Assembly: GCA_002372505.1 (NCBI GenBank)
Contig: DFGY01000062.1
Span: forward strand, 28,322 to 92,321
Source: Firmicutes bacterium UBA3738
GTDB lineage: Bacteria > Bacillota > Clostridia > Peptostreptococcales > Anaerovoracaceae
DNA: 64,000 nt
Reading direction: 5' to 3'
A model generated the notes under the pieces. It was not told the origin of the DNA. It did not search any database and worked only from the letters and a program-made list of their open reading frames with translations. Numbering within the stretch: position 1 is the first letter of the stretch; every line of letters begins with the position of its first letter. Positions 3,501 to 14,642 of the stretch are shown here, piece after piece. The translations under genes were made by a program, and so were the position numbers.

Positions 3501-5870
3501 CTTATTTTGGTCATTTACAGGGTAAACCTTATTACCCTCGTTATTAATAACGTACGGCCGTACTTTGTATGTGCCCGGCTTGGTGAACGTCACATCACCT
3601 GTGCTGCCATTTACCCGGATGCCTGAGCTTTCCGGCTCACGACTATCCCAGTAAACCTGAGTTTCCAGTATCTTGTCGTCACCATCGGTCACTTCATATG
3701 TAAATTCGTTATGCAGATTGATCGGCTTTTTATAATAGCCGGTATAGCTTCCTTCAGCAGTGACCTTCGGATCGTCCAGCCCAATATTCACAACTTGTAT
3801 TTTCACAATCGGGGTTTCGATATCCGATCCAGCTTCAGCGAAAACCTGACCTTCGGGATGATCTTTCGTCTTTGCTGTTGCACCCGGTTTGAATTTCCAC
3901 GTCATGTAGATTGTGCCGCCGGTCGTATTTTCCTTAGGTTTAAGCTCCTCACCTTCGATTGTAACAGGATCGTCAGACAGCAGGCTTCCATCATCTTCGA
4001 TTACACCATTTTCATCGCAGCGGTTCCATTCACCCCAGTCCGGATTGAATCCATAGAAAGCTACATTGTACTTGTTGTAGCCTTCCAATGGGAAAGAATC
4101 ACGATTCAGCGTGTTGTTGGTGTACAAAACATAATTCGTCTTCGGAGTCCTTACGGAGGCGAGATCGTACAGAGGATAGAGCTCATCCACATTAGAGCTG
4201 GTCTTATCCTGCTCGACTGAAACCTTTCCCGGTGTCTCGTAGAAGTAATTGGTTGACGCAAGACTTTTGAGATCAAACTTGTATTTGTTTAAGTAATTCT
4301 CCACGTCATTCCAGTTGATGCCATTGCTCTTGGTAAACCCGCTTCCGGTGCTGTGAGATTCGAAGGTGCGTCCGTTTGAAGAGTCGTAATTTGCAACCGA
4401 TTTGTTGGTAACAATGCGGCTGTACAGATCGTCAGTTGCGGCACACCCGTAGGATGTGTCTGTCTCATCCTTGGTATCGAACTTTATGACGAGGGACTGC
4501 TTATCGTAAATCGATGGGTTTATGCCACCGTCACCAGCCATACTGACGTCGCCACTTATAGCAAAGAGTGCCACCTTATAGCTTAGGATGACCGGCTGCT
4601 GATAGTTATGAGTGAAAGTGGTAGTTGTTGTCGTCTGAGTGGTATTTGTAGCCGTATGAGGAGGAAGCGAGATAGTAGTCTCAACTGCCTTGCTTACCTC
4701 TTTAGATGTGCTGTGTCCCATTTCGGCACCCATTGCACCGCCCATTTCCCAGGCAGCGCCCCAGTCCATACCTAATGAAAGGGTTGTTGACTCACTATCG
4801 GTGGATGAGCCCATACCAAACGTGTCGTCATCCCAAAAACTCGAATACTCGCTTGTCTCGGTTGTGCTCATACCAATATTAGCACCTATGTTTTGCTGCA
4901 TATTAAAGGATGCCAGACCGGAAAGCGTTGTGCTGGTCGTCTCAGTAACGGAATCTCCCAGCAAAGCGGAATGCATTATATCCTGCTGCTGATTGTTGGT
5001 GATGTCGCTAGAATTGTTGCCTTTTTTAGTTGTTTCGGCATTAGCCCCACAACTAACATATTCAAGATTTTTTGCAGCTACCGGCACAGGTTCAAAGTCA
5101 TAGAATGCTATACCGAAAGACACGTAATCATATTCTTTAGATGCGCCTTTGCAGTTTATGGAAGTCAAGATATTGGTAAAACCTGTCGTCGCAGTGTCGT
5201 CATCCAAGCCGCTAAGTCTGTCTTCGCCATTTTCATCCACGCCCAGGATTTCATCGACTGTGACAGGGCTGCTCTTTTGGATATCATAAATCGCCTGTCC
5301 CATCATTTTGCGTGCATCGGACAGTTTTGAGATCTGCTTTACGCCGGAGACGACAAACTGATCCCAGTTCTGCTCTCCCGCACGGGACGGGTACGTTTGC
5401 TTGAACTTGTCAGCAAGGCTATAGCAGCTCCAATTCTCATCTATGTACTTGCCATTTTCGCCATTTTCGCTTCTGACTCTGTTATAATAGGCATCAAATC
5501 CATCCTTGCTCATGCAGTCGCCATTGTTTAGATGGCCGTAAAGGTCGACCAGCTGGCCCGCCTGATCGCGGAAGATGGAGGTCGCGACTTCACTCCATTG
5601 AGGCAACAGCTTGTTCTTCACGATATTTTGAATGCTGCTGGCGTTTAGTGTGAATGTCGGCTTGCCGGAATCGTTCCCCAAGCTTTTATAGTTGAATTTT
5701 CCATCAAGCTTGAAGGAATCGATTCGCCGACCTTCGTCAAAAATCTTATCTTTCTGTTCCGTGGCTGTCATCTCGCCCGACTCTGTGTCAGCATATGCTG
5801 TAGACATCGGAGCTAGCATGATTGCCACGGCAACCAACATGACTAAAATCAGTTTTTGTCGATTTATCAT
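513..5870 (-). CDS. Giant secreted cell-surface protein (1785 aa) with Listeria-Bacteroides-type (Flg_new) repeats and a C-terminal lysine-rich Fn3-like + Big_2 module
   Basis: N-terminal signal peptide (MINRQKLILVMLVAVAIMLAPMSTAYA). Repeated GYTFEGWFTDK...LYAKW / GYFFGGWFTDK...LYAKW units. C-terminal LTWKKVKGTKKYVIYG segment and VTVNAKGKLTAKTKGTAMIYV Big_2-like end. Confidence 0.85.
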   Translation of the reverse strand: MINRQKLILVMLVAVAIMLAPMSTAYADTESGEMTATEQKDKIFDEGRRIDSFKLDGKFNYKSLGNDSGKPTFTLNASSIQNIVKNKLLPQWSEVATSIFRDQAGQLVDLYGHLNNGDCMSKDGFDAYYNRVRSENGENGKYIDENWSCYSLADKFKQTYPSRAGEQNWDQFVVSGVKQISKLSDARKMMGQAIYDIQKSSPVTVDEILGVDENGEDRLSGLDDDTATTGFTNILTSINCKGASKEYDYVSFGIAFYDFEPVPVAAKNLEYVSCGANAETTKKGNNSSDITNNQQQDIMHSALLGDSVTETTSTTLSGLASFNMQQNIGANIGMSTTETSEYSSFWDDDTFGMGSSTDSESTTLSLGMDWGAAWEMGGAMGAEMGHSTSKEVSKAVETTISLPPHTATNTTQTTTTTTFTHNYQQPVILSYKVALFAISGDVSMAGDGGINPSIYDKQSLVIKFDTKDETDTSYGCAATDDLYSRIVTNKSVANYDSSNGRTFESHSTGSGFTKSNGINWNDVENYLNKYKFDLKSLASTNYFYETPGKVSVEQDKTSSNVDELYPLYDLASVRTPKTNYVLYTNNTLNRDSFPLEGYNKYNVAFYGFNPDWGEWNRCDENGVIEDDGSLLSDDPVTIEGEELKPKENTTGGTIYMTWKFKPGATAKTKDHPEGQVFAEAGSDIETPIVKIQVVNIGLDDPKVTAEGSYTGYYKKPINLHNEFTYEVTDGDDKILETQVYWDSREPESSGIRVNGSTGDVTFTKPGTYKVRPYVINNEGNKVYPVNDQNKAEWLTVTATEHDLMHYDAKDPTCDNYGWKEHYRCTDCGKYFSDAEGKSEVQEEDVLINATGHDWGDWTTTKEPSGNEKGEQQRVCKKDESHVDKRDLYSVQFNVNGHGGAPEKQNVPAGASVKVPQVPTATGYTFEGWFTDKACNNAYDFGATVNDNLVLYAKWTANKYTAAAMAIDFTLGEESFVDEDGVEQTEVKVAPTANGSIKIEEGDEVDEVTEEGKGYKYSYKEVEYGKLVTLTVTPANGYGLKEIMAIPVKSDSSVGESFTPNKIGDNKYSFTMPDADVAILANFAQVTVKYDGNAPEGETATGVPEEEKVAYGGTPTKLDNEPSIDGYFFGGWFTDKDCTKPYLKSSALTEDTTLYAKWSEDENKHTVTYTLKWDPDENDPTDEGVYEDSYKAENGSKAYDPTEDLYELAGLDLLKAYKLYSKETADTCWFTDESLETPFDFSTPIAENIHLYAKVVPREYKVTYYNGEEELGSQNVEYNKPIGKIADDVRKPVKEDHEFEWTTEDGAPWDIESTPVTDDMKLIAKWNVNQYKVSFDANGGSGNMDAKEVEENTDYELPESTFTAPEGKCDLEAWEVQVGTNDAEKKQPGDKVTITANTTVKAIWKDHEWGDWKETTPATIGAEGEETRVCANNKDHTETRSTGKVDPTPLSNAIKAAKDAENGVKTSADGKDVDPADRYTTPAEKKALDDAIEKAQAVLDSPKSTQQQVDDAVAAIKKAKETYDAAKKPGKKESGKKDDKTRKKGEDGTAVGKGASADVAENAILKAKSDKDPAGSKYAPLKLKSTKQTKKSVNLTWKKVKGTKKYVIYGNACGKKNKFKKIKTLGASKNTLNVKKIAGKKLKKKTYYKFIMVALDKNDTVVSTSKVVHVATKGSKKKANPKSVIAKAKVNKAGKKIKKWKKTSKVTLKAGSTPKALVKSTKLKATIKKAKKTKVRKHVNIRFESTNPKVVTVNAKGKLTAKTKGTAMIYVIAQNGIAKTVKVTVK

Positions 5871-6215: not shown

Positions 6216-6242
6216 GCGTTTCACGGGGACAGGCTTTTTGTT
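6216..6242. repeat. Dispersed 27-nt element, copy 1 (GCGTTTCACGGGGACAGGCTTTTTGTT)
   Basis: Exact reverse complement of the copy at 12477-12504. Confidence 0.8.
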
Positions 6243-6285: not shown

Positions 6286-7011
6286 TCACCTTTTTTTCGG
6301 TGCCGGGTCGGTGAGCTCCGGAATGGCTCCTCCGGCAACTGCCCAGAAATATAGGCTGGCTACGCTGCAGTACGGTGAAAGTCTGCGGCGGTACTTTTCG
6401 AATTTTTTCTTGTCCAACTCGCGATGGCGGTAGACCATTCTCATTCCTCGGCGGATAGCCAAGTCGCCGTAGCTTAGAATGTCCGGACGCTGCAGGCAGA
6501 AGAGAAGCAGCATCTCCGCAGTCCACACACCGATTCCTTTAAGAGCGGAAAGCGCCTCAATGGCTTCTTCATCACTCATGTCTTTCAGCGCTTTGATGTC
6601 GAACTCGCCGGAGTGAACCTTCCCGGCAAAATCCTTGATGTACTCTACCTTCCGGAAAGACAGGCCGACTGATTGTAGCTCCTCGTTAGTCAGCGCACAA
6701 ATCTGATCGGCTGTGACCAGCGCTCGGGAACCCTCGACTGCTGCTGTTTCTGATGTATTGGGCTCTATTCCTGACTGCCCTCGTTTATCGTCCGAAAGCA
6801 GGTTGAGAAACCTGTTCCAAATTGTGACCTGCGCTTTTGTCGAAATCTGCTGACCTACAATCTGGTGTACCACAGACGTAAAAAGATCAGGCTCCGTGCG
6901 CCTCTTAATCGGCCCGACCTTATCTATTATTTCCGCAAGCTTCTTGTCCTTGCTCTTCAGATATTCAATTTCATTTTCGCCATATTTGAAATACATAACT
7001 TTATTATACAC
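6286..7011 (-). CDS. DNA-3-methyladenine glycosylase II family protein (HhH-GPD, AlkA-like)
   Basis: HhH motif LKGIGVWTAEM followed by the YGDLAIRRG Asp region. Length and layout are typical of AlkA-type glycosylases. The stop TGA lies inside a GGTGACAGGGGG hairpin. Confidence 0.8.
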   Translation of the reverse strand: MYNKVMYFKYGENEIEYLKSKDKKLAEIIDKVGPIKRRTEPDLFTSVVHQIVGQQISTKAQVTIWNRFLNLLSDDKRGQSGIEPNTSETAAVEGSRALVTADQICALTNEELQSVGLSFRKVEYIKDFAGKVHSGEFDIKALKDMSDEEAIEALSALKGIGVWTAEMLLLFCLQRPDILSYGDLAIRRGMRMVYRHRELDKKKFEKYRRRLSPYCSVASLYFWAVAGGAIPELTDPAPKKR

Positions 7012-7015
7012 GACT

Positions 7016-7042
7016 GCGTTTCACAGGGACAGGCTTTTTGTT
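7016..7042. repeat. Dispersed 27-nt element, copy 2 (GCGTTTCACAGGGACAGGCTTTTTGTT)
   Basis: One mismatch to copy 1. Sits immediately left of the 84-bp tandem array. Confidence 0.8.
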
Positions 7043-7056
7043 CCGCCCAGGTGTCA

Positions 7057-7440
7057 GCGCGGCATGTTTGTAATGTTTTTTAGGAGAAACATGTCGCTGA
7101 GGTCCCGCTCTGGCTGCTGGTCGATTGGCAGTCCTGGTTTTGCGACATGTTTGCAGTGATTTCTTAGGTGAAACATGTCGCTGAGGCCCTGCTCTGGCTG
7201 TTGGTCGATTGTCAGTCCTGACTTTGCGACATGTTTGCAGTGATTTCTTAGGTGAAACATGTCGCTGATGTCCTGCTCTGGCTGTTGGTCGATTGTCAGT
7301 CCTGACTTTGCGACACGTTTGCAGTGATTTCTTAGGACAAACGTGTCGCTGAGGTTCTGCTCTGGCTGATCTCCGGTTGCCTGCCCTGTCTTAGCGACAT
7401 GTTTGTGCTCGTTTTTGATTGCAAACATGTCGGCACGCTC
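7057..7440. repeat. Tandem repeat, about 4.5 units of 84 bp, each holding an 11-bp-stem hairpin
   Basis: GCGAC unit starts at 7142, 7226, 7310 and 7394 (period 84 each), with a diverged first unit from 7057. Arms are GCGACATGTTT / AAACATGTCGC around an 18-nt loop. Confidence 0.9.
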
Positions 7441-7465
7441 TTGTCTTGGCTATCCGCCGCCCACT

Positions 7466-7509
7466 CAAAAGAGACAGGCTGTTTCAAAAGACCTGTCCCT
7501 GTGTAGCGC
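7466..7509. repeat. Dispersed element, inverted and extended copy (GAGACAGGCTGTTTCAAAAGACCTGTCCCTGTGTAGCGC)
   Basis: The right end CCTGTCCCTGTGTAGCGC is close to the reverse complement of copy 2. It also contains a GACAGG...CCTGTC inverted repeat. Confidence 0.7.
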
Positions 7510-7658
7510 TCTATGGAACGCTCCTTATTCCGCTCGGCGAAGCCCGCTGCTGCCCGCCGGCCCCAACCCCAGCCGGCGAAGGCAGCTATAGAGCGAGGCT
7601 GAGCCGTAAGCGGAATCCAAGAGCCCAGTTGAGGGCGATTGGATATGCATTGCCAAAC

Positions 7659-7702
7659 CAAAAGAGACAGGCTGTTTCAAAAAGCCTGTCCCTGTGTAAC
7701 GC
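7659..7702. repeat. Dispersed element, second inverted and extended copy
   Basis: CAAAAGAGACAGGCTGTTTCAAAAAGCCTGTCCCTGTGTAACGC, near-identical to 7466-7509. Confidence 0.7.
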
Positions 7703-7715
7703 TGTCAGATGTTGG

Positions 7716-7749
7716 CAAAAGGTGACAAGAGAACCGTCCCCCTGTCATC
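7716..7749 (-). terminator. Rho-independent terminator of tyrS
   Basis: Minus strand reads GATGACAGGGGGACGGTTCTCTTGTCACC followed by TTTTG. The hairpin starts at the stop codon. Confidence 0.7.
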
Positions 7750-9079
7750 AAATCTCGACGATGTGCTTTTTCTTTTTGCCTTTTTCGACGAGGAGTTTGC
7801 CGTCTTCGAACATGTCGGTTGTGACGGTGGCTTTGCGGTCGGTGATTTTCTGGCCGCCGATGGTGACGCCGCCCTGGTCGATGGTGCGGAAGGCTTCGCT
7901 GTTGGAGTCTGCCAGACCCAGCTTGTTCAGTAGGGCTGCGACGCCGTAGCCTTCGCCTTCAAATTCGGAAGCGTCCATCTTTGTGGTGGGCATGTTTGCG
8001 CTCATGCCACCGCCGCCAAATGCAGCGCGGGCGCCTTCCTGGGCTTTTGTTGCTTCTTCTTCGCCGTGTACCAGCTTGGTTACTTCAAAGGCCAGTACTT
8101 CCTTGGCGTGATTTATTTCCTGACCTTCCAGTGCGGAGAGGCGGTTAACCTCGTCCATGGGAAGGAATGTGAGCATTCTCAGGCACTTGTTTACGTCTGC
8201 GTCCTCTACGTTTCTCCAGTACTGGTAGAAGTCGTAGGGGGTAGTCCTGGAGCCGTCCAGCCACAGTGCACCGGCCTGGGTCTTGCCCATCTTCTGGCCT
8301 GTGCTGGTTGTGAGCAGAGCCATGGTCATGCCGTATACCTGCTTCTGGCAGGCCTTACGTGTCAGCTCGACGCCGGCGATAATGTTGGACCACTGGTCGT
8401 TGCCGCCGAACTGCATCTTTATGTCGATGTCGCGGGCCATTACCATGAAGTCGTAGCCCTGCATGAGCATGTAGTTGAATTCGAAGAATGAGAGACCGTT
8501 TTCTCTCGCCATTCTCTGCTTGAATGCCTCGGCCTGAAGCATTGTGTTTACGTTAAAGTGTGTGCCGATTTCGCGGACGAATTCGACGTAGTTGAGGGGT
8601 CTGAGCCACTCTGCGTTGTTTACGGAAATGGCCATGCCCGGCTCGGGAGTTTTGTTCTCTTTGCCCGGCTGGTATACGCCATTGTTGCCTTCATACTTCC
8701 ACTCGTCGTCGAAGTCCAGGAAGCGCTCGAAGAGCTTCTTGAACTGGGCGCAGTTGTCGTCGATTGTCTGTACGTCCATAACCTGGCGCATGTCGGTTCT
8801 GCCGGAAGGGTCGCCTACCATGCCGGTGCCGCCGCCCAGAAGAACTACAGGTGTGTGGCCGTACTTCTGCATGTACATCATGATGATGATCTGCATGAAG
8901 TGTCCTACGTGAAGGCAGTCCGCTGTCGGGTCGAAGCCTATGTAGAATTTGATTTTCTCTTTTCCGAGAAGGTCTCTGATTTCCTCTTCATGGGTGCACT
9001 GCTCAATGAAGCCGCGCTCCATGAGGACGTCGAAAACGTTTTCTTTATCGCTTACGCTATCGGGAATAAAGTTTTTCAT
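7748..9079 (-). CDS. tyrS: Tyrosine--tRNA ligase
   Basis: Class I motifs HVGH (..CLHVGHFMQ..) and KMGKT (KMSKS equivalent), plus a C-terminal S4-like domain. ATG confirmed at 9077-9079. Confidence 0.93.
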   Translation of the reverse strand: MKNFIPDSVSDKENVFDVLMERGFIEQCTHEEEIRDLLGKEKIKFYIGFDPTADCLHVGHFMQIIIMMYMQKYGHTPVVLLGGGTGMVGDPSGRTDMRQVMDVQTIDDNCAQFKKLFERFLDFDDEWKYEGNNGVYQPGKENKTPEPGMAISVNNAEWLRPLNYVEFVREIGTHFNVNTMLQAEAFKQRMARENGLSFFEFNYMLMQGYDFMVMARDIDIKMQFGGNDQWSNIIAGVELTRKACQKQVYGMTMALLTTSTGQKMGKTQAGALWLDGSRTTPYDFYQYWRNVEDADVNKCLRMLTFLPMDEVNRLSALEGQEINHAKEVLAFEVTKLVHGEEEATKAQEGARAAFGGGGMSANMPTTKMDASEFEGEGYGVAALLNKLGLADSNSEAFRTIDQGGVTIGGQKITDRKATVTTDMFEDGKLLVEKGKKKKHIVEI

Positions 9080-9140
9080 TTATCTGTTTTGCCCGGCGCT
9101 ATTGCCGGAGCAAATTCTCCTTTCTATTTTTTGCTATAAC

Positions 9141-9770
9141 TTACTTCGTGCCGTAGAGTCTGTCGCCTGCATCTCCCAGTCCGGGGACGATGTAAGCGTT
9201 CTCATTTAGGCGCTCGTCCTTGGCTGCTATGTAAATGTCGATGTCCGGGTGGGCTTCCTGCAGAGCCTGGATTCCTTCGGGAGCTGCAATGAGGCACATG
9301 AATGTAATGTTCTTGCCCCCCAGCTTCTTGATGAAGTCCACTGCTGCTACTGCACTGCCGCCGGTGGCCAGCATTGGGTCAACTACGAAGATTCTTCTGC
9401 TGGTCAGGTCCTCGGGCATCTTGCAGTAATAGTCGTGAGGCTCGTGAGTCACCGGGTCGCGGTAAAGGCCTACGTGGCCGACTTTCGCCGTGGGAATGAG
9501 CTCCAGCAGTCCTTCCACCAGTCCCAGGCCTGCTCTTAAGATCGGCACGATGGCGATGGATTTGCTGGGAAGCATCTTCACCGTAGTGGGACAAATGGGT
9601 GTCTCGATTTCCTTTTCTTCCAGATCCAGGTCTCGGAGGGCCTCATAGCCCATGAGGAGAGAAATCTCCTTAACGAGCTCGCGGAAATCCTTTGTGTTGG
9701 TTTCCTTCATTCTCAGCATTGCTGTCTTGTGCTGGATTAACGGGTGATCAGATACATATACTTTTCCCAT
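9141..9770 (-). CDS. upp: Uracil phosphoribosyltransferase
   Basis: [16 protein letters not shown]-terminus, PRPP-binding [12 protein letters not shown]-terminal [15 protein letters not shown]. Confidence 0.95.
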
Positions 9771-12476: not shown

Positions 12477-12504
12477 AAACAAAAAGCCTGTCCCCGTGAA
12501 ACGC
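12477..12504. repeat. Dispersed 27-nt element, copy 5 (reverse orientation)
   Basis: AACAAAAAGCCTGTCCCCGTGAAACGC. Confidence 0.8.
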
Positions 12505-14544: not shown

Positions 14545-14570
14545 AACAAAAAGCCTGTCCCCGTGAAACG
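14545..14570. repeat. Dispersed 27-nt element, copy 6
   Basis: AACAAAAAGCCTGTCCCCGTGAAACG, part of the duplicated leader. Confidence 0.8.
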
Positions 14571-14642
14571 GGTTATTCCGTTGCCAGGTGACAGGGGGGA
14601 CGGCTCTTGTCACCATTTGCTAATTTCTATCATCCCCATAAC

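Follow-up and report, generated by a model that had tools for sequence, protein, structure and literature searches.

A row of long hairpins, repeated head to tail, fills part of the space between two genes in the genome of a rumen anaerobe, and the question that this locus raises is whether the hairpins serve the neighboring genes, as an RNA or as an operator, or belong to some other kind of element. The window, that is, the whole stretch of DNA that was analysed, comprises 64,000 nucleotides from Firmicutes bacterium UBA3738; the genome (G000 below) is a 2.03 Mb assembly in 129 contigs, and the array lies on contig C75. Its neighbors are a gene for an HhH-GPD glycosylase (6286-7011, - strand) and the TyrRS gene (tyrS; 7748-9079, - strand).

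Architecture of the array

The tandem array occupies 7059-7433 on the + strand and consists of five stem-loops and four 44-nt linkers with a period of 84, as established by Tandem Repeats Finder (7059-7405, period 84, 4.1 copies, 88% matches, score 498), by folding and by a pattern search with GCGACATGTTT-N17/18-AAACATGTCGC. The stem-loops are located at 7059-7097, 7142-7181, 7226-7265, 7310-7349 and 7394-7433, and a unit is made up of 11 + 18 + 11 + 44 = 84 bp, with the arms GCGACATGTTT and AAACATGTCGC on either side of the loop; the loop of unit 1 is 17 nt long, which gives a spacing of 83. The original prediction of about 4.5 such 84-bp hairpin units between an alkA-like gene and tyrS is in this respect accurate, the glycosylase and TyrRS genes being the flanking pair, and the two finer details that it reported are also present. 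Unit 4 (7310-7349, + strand) has the arms GCGACACGTTT...AAACGTGTCGC, in which pair 7 has changed from T-A to C-G and pairing is preserved, and the base preceding its right arm has changed from G to C, adding a twelfth pair (G-C) at the loop end and extending the arms to 12 nt. Unit 1 carries the arm GCGGCATGTTT, in which pair 4 is G.T, on the + strand only.

Each unit folds as a stand-alone hairpin, with z scores against shuffles of -5.2 and -5.05 for the two strands, and the hairpin pattern has 17 matches in G000 versus 0 for the reversed control. Unit identities across the window array are 100, 98, 87 and 82%, with the center at 98-100% and the outer units at 87 and 82%. Unit 1 is not an assembly artefact, since the Logan assembly of SRR5322791 independently reproduces the left bracket (see below) and unit 1, continues into unit 2 as far as position 7168 and breaks off within that unit. 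Exact-protein look-ups matched only the same scaffold and this Logan assembly, broken within the repeats.

Sister arrays and the REP-A bracket

Three further arrays of the same hairpin, with 3-5 units, are present in G000: one on C36 (82246-82621, opposite orientation, five units of period 84), one on C103 (20125-20416, four units of period 84) and one on C109 (2068-2280, three units at spacings of 89 and 84). Unit number therefore varies across the four elements (3, 4, 5 and 5). In the window element, the left junction (TTCCGCCCAGGTGTCAGC, 7041-7058, + strand), otherwise unique by BLAST, is homologous to the junction on C36 (reverse complement TTCCGCCCGGAGTTGGCAG), and the right junction resembles that on C109; because these junctions are shared, the arrays are taken to be related as whole elements and not formed independently. 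The gene contexts of the four loci differ and none is consistent, and the orientation of the array relative to neighboring genes is co-directional at C75 and C103 and divergent at C36 and C109.

What adjoins every array in G000 is a 25-nt sequence, GCGTTTCACGGGGACAGGCTTTTTG, designated REP-A, which flanks the C36 array on each side, forms the right bracket of the C103 array and brackets the array on C109. REP-A is found in 249-255 copies in G000 (with up to 3-4 mismatches), and at no more than one mismatch the count is 221 versus 0 for the reversed control. Copies in the window lie at 6216-6234, 7016-7040, 7485-7509, 7678-7706, 12486-12504 and 14553-14571. The left bracket of the window array is the copy GCGTTTCACAGGGACAGGCTTTTTG, containing GGGACAG (7016-7040, + strand), and the right bracket is an inverted copy (7485-7509), which together with a preceding partial complement (7470-7484) forms a terminator-like hairpin (7470-7509, - strand). 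The two bracketing copies, 7016-7040 and 7485-7509, are 84% complementary, and complementarity between 7012-7040 and 7678-7706 is 93%.

Adjacent inverted pairs of REP-A number 75, in size classes of 79, ~117, ~145, ~190 and ~300-320 bp, and 4 of the 75 enclose a hairpin array. The 79-bp class comprises 17 long palindromes in which the central 10-15 nt vary between copies while self-complementarity is kept, a REPIN-like behavior in a Clostridia genome. Beside the ends of REP-A copies A/T is preferred (70% T outward) and there is no clear target-site duplication; neither a transposition event nor an empty site was seen in the flanks of the G000 copies. The congeners yielded no glycosylase gene and hence no empty site at this locus for inspection. 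None of 120 other family genomes, one congener among them, contains REP-A, a lineage specificity that is usual for repeat families of this sort (PMC3116915, PMC5581495).

The segment 7016-7509 combines traits of MITEs (terminal inverted repeats, small size and no coding capacity) with traits of BOX elements (mutually complementary ends and 3-5 independently folding inner units). It has a bracket, it is one of four related arrays with some shared junctions, its arms are conserved relative to drifting loops and linkers, and it carries no coding signal. The explanation we favor, with a probability of roughly 0.6, is that the array is the tandemly amplified inner stem-loop module of a selfish, non-coding composite repeat, 7016-7509, enclosed by a bracket pair of the TIRtron type.

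A candidate mobilizing transposase

A single-copy gene on C15 (~8697-9449, - strand) encodes a protein of 251 aa and is itself bracketed by REP-A, at 8658 (+) and 9568 (-). The protein scores 80.3 bits against the NCBIfam model REP_Tyr_transpos (REP-associated tyrosine transposase, NF047646), which is at threshold only given the cut-off of 80, and 61 bits against Pfam Y1_Tnp (PF01797); a sequence search of the PDB gave no match. Residues H60, H62, Y119 and N123-P124 are invariant in an alignment across 7 homologues, in which the HUH histidines and the tyrosine motif Y-I-x-x-N-P are retained, as is a C-terminal HTH-like tail. This RAYT/TIRYT-like HUH tyrosine transposase is the probable candidate for the enzyme that mobilizes REP-A. 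Homologues with 35-44% identity occur, in 1-3 copies, in 21 of 201 family genomes, and in two of them, from other genera (L103 and L104), the gene is flanked by inverted repeats of the GGGGACGGTTC type, also given as GGGGACGG, so the arrangement of gene plus repeat is conserved across this bacterial family. A RAYT/TIRYT-like paralogue in G000, on C59 (10822-11700), is flanked by a second repeat, REP-B (GGTGACAGGGGGACGGTTCTCCTGTCATC), with at least 107 copies. Most REP-A copies carry GGGGACAG, and because this fits GGGGWSAS and the GTAG tag is absent, the system would be classified as a TIRtron type and not as a classical REP.

A second carrier genome

The original prediction had suggested that the unit be sought throughout the genome and its relatives. 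The first part of this search was productive, yielding the four arrays of 3-5 units in G000, and the second much less so. Other genomes were screened with the pattern (201 family genomes), with a covariance model derived from 49 hairpins (401 family and 401 order genomes, ~800) and by an exact-pattern scan of one genome for each of 185,579 species. Together these searches revealed only one other carrier, the MAG "Eubacteriaceae bacterium SUG1884" (G138), a member of another genus. The hairpin is absent from all sampled congeners and, SUG1884 excepted, from the ~800 sampled genomes of the family and order; a congener of SUG1884, G024, is likewise without it by the covariance model. Besides SUG1884, the scan of 185,579 species returned single matches only, in about the number estimated from pattern length and database size. 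The plasmid and phage collections held no match to the hairpin, JGI metagenome contigs gave 0 matches, and viral contigs gave 2 single matches that were judged to be chance. An unrelated Oscillospiraceae MAG (CAKTJC010000007) has one hairpin, GCGCCATGTTTGG...CCAAACATGGC, immediately beyond the end of a gene (2637-2671), which may be either an isolated member of the family or a terminator-like hairpin that matches by chance.

The arms in SUG1884 are GCGCCATGTTT and AAACATGGCGC, with C-G at pair 4 as against A-U (A-T) in G000; the loop, GATGCTATTTCAGAGG, is related, and a motif ATTTC..AGG is partly common to both genomes. SUG1884 has many arrays, with a period of 52-53 bp (mean ~52.4) and intervals of 13-14 nt, which reach 13 or more units and are often at contig ends. 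A REP-A-like motif with 18 copies adjoins several of them, and no gene recurs beside them. There is no RAYT-like gene in SUG1884, only ordinary IS200/IS605 transposases, and the ends of these IS200/IS605 elements have no similarity to the hairpin; a RAYT-like transposase is therefore not required for the hairpin module to spread or persist. At one SUG1884 locus (JAQYNQ010000037, ~4680-4730; also at the end of locus L084) half a hairpin, consisting of loop and right arm, directly adjoins the right end of an IS200/IS605-family element, which would appear to have landed in the loop of an array unit.

Constraint on the arms

The arms of the palindrome are constrained beyond what recent duplication would give, because between the arrays of G000 they are 94% identical whereas loops are 60% and linkers 51% identical. 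This differential is much stronger evidence of constraint than the single paired change in unit 4 from which the original prediction had argued for selection on the hairpin or palindrome, and not duplication alone; that argument is upheld, both by the conservation of the arms and by three independent double changes that keep pairing, namely those in window unit 4, in one SUG1884 unit, and between the two genomes (A-U versus C-G). A structure alignment of 49 hairpins from both carrier genomes has 89.3% of cells paired and double changes at three pairs, and its covariation score of 0.126 (0.074 in shuffles) was attained by 0 of 500 shuffles. Gene conversion from elsewhere, which the prediction had named as a competing source of the paired change, does not account for unit 4, since the ACACGT/ACGTGT variant was found at no other locus in the pattern search. 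Template switching can nevertheless yield paired changes in one step and without selection, and such a change is to be expected from replication template switching in quasi-palindromes, where it can create and maintain hairpins, again without selection (PMC8794818). A single event of this sort, with the left arm as template, could account for both the right-arm change in unit 4 and the adjacent G to C. A paired arm substitution is by itself no proof of an RNA gene.

One alternative is that the array is transcribed as a structured RNA with selected pairing, be it a multi-hairpin small RNA, a protein sponge, or a stabilizer or insulator of a tyrS-glycosylase mRNA. The paired changes at three stem positions with their covariation score, the fold z of -5.2 and the loop motif partly conserved in G000 and SUG1884 are all consistent with this. 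So is a strand bias in wobble pairs, as all 5 of the single-arm changes internal to G000 give G.U on the window + strand and 0 do so on the - strand, an excess with a one-sided chance of ~0.03 (our own arithmetic) that would also fit one defined DNA strand. In SUG1884, however, wobble pairs are divided 27:27 between the two strands, and 32 mismatches occur, 12 of which are A.A at pair 9, with only one of these compensated. It follows that pairing is favored but not strictly enforced and that neither strand is consistently marked; no strand-consistent wobble pattern was found among the hairpins of G000 and SUG1884. An Rfam 15 search of 6500-9600 gave no match (0 at E up to 1), a simple promoter scan detected no promoter-like site, and both flanking genes are on the - strand, so that read-through would carry the other strand. 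The differing orientation of the arrays relative to neighboring genes and the absence of the element from congeners point in the same direction, and we consider an RNA role possible but doubtful.

The array might instead provide helically phased duplex or cruciform sites for a DNA-binding protein, in the manner of an iteron or centromere. The sopC region of the F plasmid has 43-bp repeats with an inverted repeat in each. Near-invariance of the arm sequence within each genome, beyond what pairing demands, would fit such a role, as would the exact 84-bp unit length, without indels, of three arrays whose linkers are only 51% identical, and the correspondence of 84 bp and ~52.4 bp, in the window array and the SUG1884 arrays, to 8.0 and 5.0 turns of B-DNA (our own arithmetic). 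The arms of a unit, on the other hand, are 29 bp apart center to center (2.8 turns), a poor arrangement for a dimer on one face, and the C109 array includes one spacing of 89 bp. The symmetric change in unit 4 would weaken binding at both half-sites and not preserve it, and that such a change arose inside a single genome speaks against a protein site of symmetric duplex type. The arrays are moreover chromosomal and dispersed, without plasmid or phage matches, and have no recurring gene beside them. This explanation appears improbable. A related proposal retains the stem-loop as the functional unit, horizontally shared or retained in two rumen species of one family and acting as a helically phased array that a protein would recognize in hairpin or cruciform form, or as a multi-hairpin + strand RNA, with REP-A as a mere vehicle; we regard it as tentative and rather unlikely.

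An RNA or operator that acts by way of the alkA-like gene, as the original prediction envisaged, is unsupported by these data: the array lies within an inverted pair of a repeat with ~250 copies and recurs at three unrelated loci, and the absence from congeners, the mismatches in SUG1884 and the lack of a wobble strand bias there further count against that framing. The composite repeat with an amplified inner module remains the favored explanation.

Reading frames and the resemblance to CRISPR

The - strand of the array holds an open frame of 124 aa (7054-7428), composed of 28-aa repeats, which is annotated as a gene in an ENA record (ERZ28612969, scaffold_593; 4652-5026 at locus L108, 2069-2443 at L110). 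The frame is open only because 84 = 28 x 3. As a gene it is almost certainly false, since it has no Pfam match and no homologue among 5.8 billion proteins and is incompatible with the periods elsewhere, those of 52/53 and 89 bp breaking any long frame. A row of small genes on the + strand is the other form that a coding explanation could take, units 1-3 of both the window array and the C103 array each having exactly 22 codons (MSL..GCW..ATCLQ/R). An open run of 22 codons nevertheless has a chance of ~0.35, and in C36, C109, unit 4 and SUG1884 the small frames are unrelated and of 8-14 codons. That the array codes for protein, on either strand, is very improbable. The 22-codon frames, MSLRPCSGCWSIVSPDFATCLQ, contain Cys and occur in six units of two arrays, and they are not conserved in the other arrays; an AGGAG/AGGTG box precedes the right-arm ATG by 4-5 nt on the + strand at 7082-7160 and in the following units. 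The practical effect of the array is a spurious gene call of 124 aa and the breakage of short-read assemblies.

A palindromic 40-nt repeat at regular 44-nt intervals, with intervals that differ between arrays, also recalls a degenerate CRISPR array. It was dismissed as such in the original prediction for its want of unique spacers, and rightly so, because the intervals of any one array share 75% identity and are evidently copies of one another; a CRISPR array is rejected on this spacer identity. The intervals of only 13-14 nt in SUG1884 and the bracketing by REP-A are further points against it, and the chance that a CRISPR origin is correct is negligible.

How the element may spread and change

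For a composite repeat with the array as its inner module, a mode of spread and change can be proposed. The transposase would act on the bracket ends, and whole elements would be spread in trans. Unit number, 3-5 in G000 and at least 13 in SUG1884, would shift by replication slippage or unequal recombination, which fits the greater similarity of the central units (98%) than of the edge units (82-87%), a distribution usual in arrays that change in this way. The arms may stay paired because a single-stranded hairpin is needed for spread, or because template switching perfects quasi-palindromes.

Relation to known repeat systems

Two things are new here, the sequence family and the joint occurrence, in the genome of a rumen Clostridia lineage, of a transposase-linked bracket and a BOX-like inner array. 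Elements of this general kind are known. TIRYT/TIRtron systems (Di Nocera et al. 2013, PMC3733652; Quentin et al. 2018, PMC6006769, TnpA-Y1 subclass 2.1) have a RAYT-like protein with a C-terminal HTH and flanking inverted repeats that share GGGGWSAS. The likeness is threefold: here too a RAYT-like HUH tyrosine transposase of ~250 aa has a C-terminal HTH-like tail, its gene is flanked by inverted GGGGWSAS repeats (GGGGACAG), and the flanking sequence is dispersed as singles, dimers and clusters. The differences lie in the host, a rumen Clostridia lineage, in a copy number that appears high (~250 plus at least 107 in 2.0 Mb, as against TIRtron families described as only moderately abundant in PMC3733652), and in the four dimers that enclose a tandem array of unrelated stem-loops, an arrangement not described in the available text of PMC3733652 or PMC6006769.

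In architecture the closest counterparts are the pneumococcal BOX elements and the REPIN/BIME systems. BOX elements have the form boxA - boxB(n) - boxC (Croucher et al. 2011, PMC3049150), and share with the present element two mutually pairing end modules around variable tandem copies of a self-folding short module, spurious open reading frames in large copies, and a species-restricted, non-coding character (PMC3049150). The likeness is one of architecture only. The end modules here are linked to a transposase, whereas BOX has no known transposase, and the unit here is 84 bp (52/53 bp in SUG1884). With REPINs and their RAYTs (Bertels and Rainey 2011, PMC3116915; Bertels et al. 2017, PMC5581495) the system has in common inverted doublets that form long hairpins, represented here by the 17 copies of the 79-bp class with varying palindromic centers, a single-copy flanked transposase gene, and a vertical, lineage-specific distribution. 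It differs in that a single REP-A copy is not a GTAG-tagged palindrome and in that the hairpin array is cargo and not a REP; RAYT groups 2 and 3 are, in addition, mainly proteobacterial (PMC3116915, PMC5581495).

The BIMEs of Escherichia coli, studied by Gilson, Bachellier and colleagues, are intergenic clusters of palindromic units with conserved linkers, often beside terminators, all features that are shared with the present array. BIME units, however, alternate in orientation and are REPs, while the units here run head to tail and are distinct from the bracket. Systems of the REP/TIRtron type have been studied mostly in Proteobacteria, and the present genome provides a Gram-positive rumen anaerobe with a dense, transposase-linked repeat system of this type, amounting to ~360 copies of two families in 2 Mb. 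It also indicates that a tandem stem-loop module can be surrounded and transported by bracket repeats, much as in pneumococcal BOX elements.

The remaining spacer and the glycosylase promoter

The remainder of the tyrS-glycosylase spacer is derived from repeats, as judged from a three-copy module, a self-pairing REP-A and a copy of REP-B. The module, at 7511-7638, is GC-rich, 128 nt long and unrelated to the array, and has its other genomic copies on C112 and C26. It lies between two REP-A copies, as the C26 copy lies inside another REP-A pair, and would on this evidence be another cargo of the REP-A bracket family. A second inverted REP-A in the self-pairing form GGGACAGGC-loop-GCCTGTCTC, followed by a T run (7663-7706, - strand), is by eye the likely terminator of tyrS; a simple terminator scan missed it, its loop being longer than 8 nt. 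The REP-B copy, GGTGACAAGAGAACCGTCCCCCTGTCATC, is at 7715-7750.

On the other side, the left bracket directly abuts TGTATAAT (7003-7010, - strand), a box that from its sequence resembles an extended -10 element and lies 6 nt before the ATG of the glycosylase gene (6996). The promoter scan, which requires a -35 element, did not confirm it. The 6-nt distance suggests a leaderless transcript whose -35 region would be occupied by the repeat. With the tyrS terminator on one side and the -10-like box of the DNA-repair glycosylase gene on the other, the element may alter expression of the glycosylase gene, and any effect on the host is probably incidental. TATAAT-like boxes accompany ~11% of REP-A copies (that in the window and 27 others), mostly 7-11 nt outside the end, and <2% of random 20-mers.
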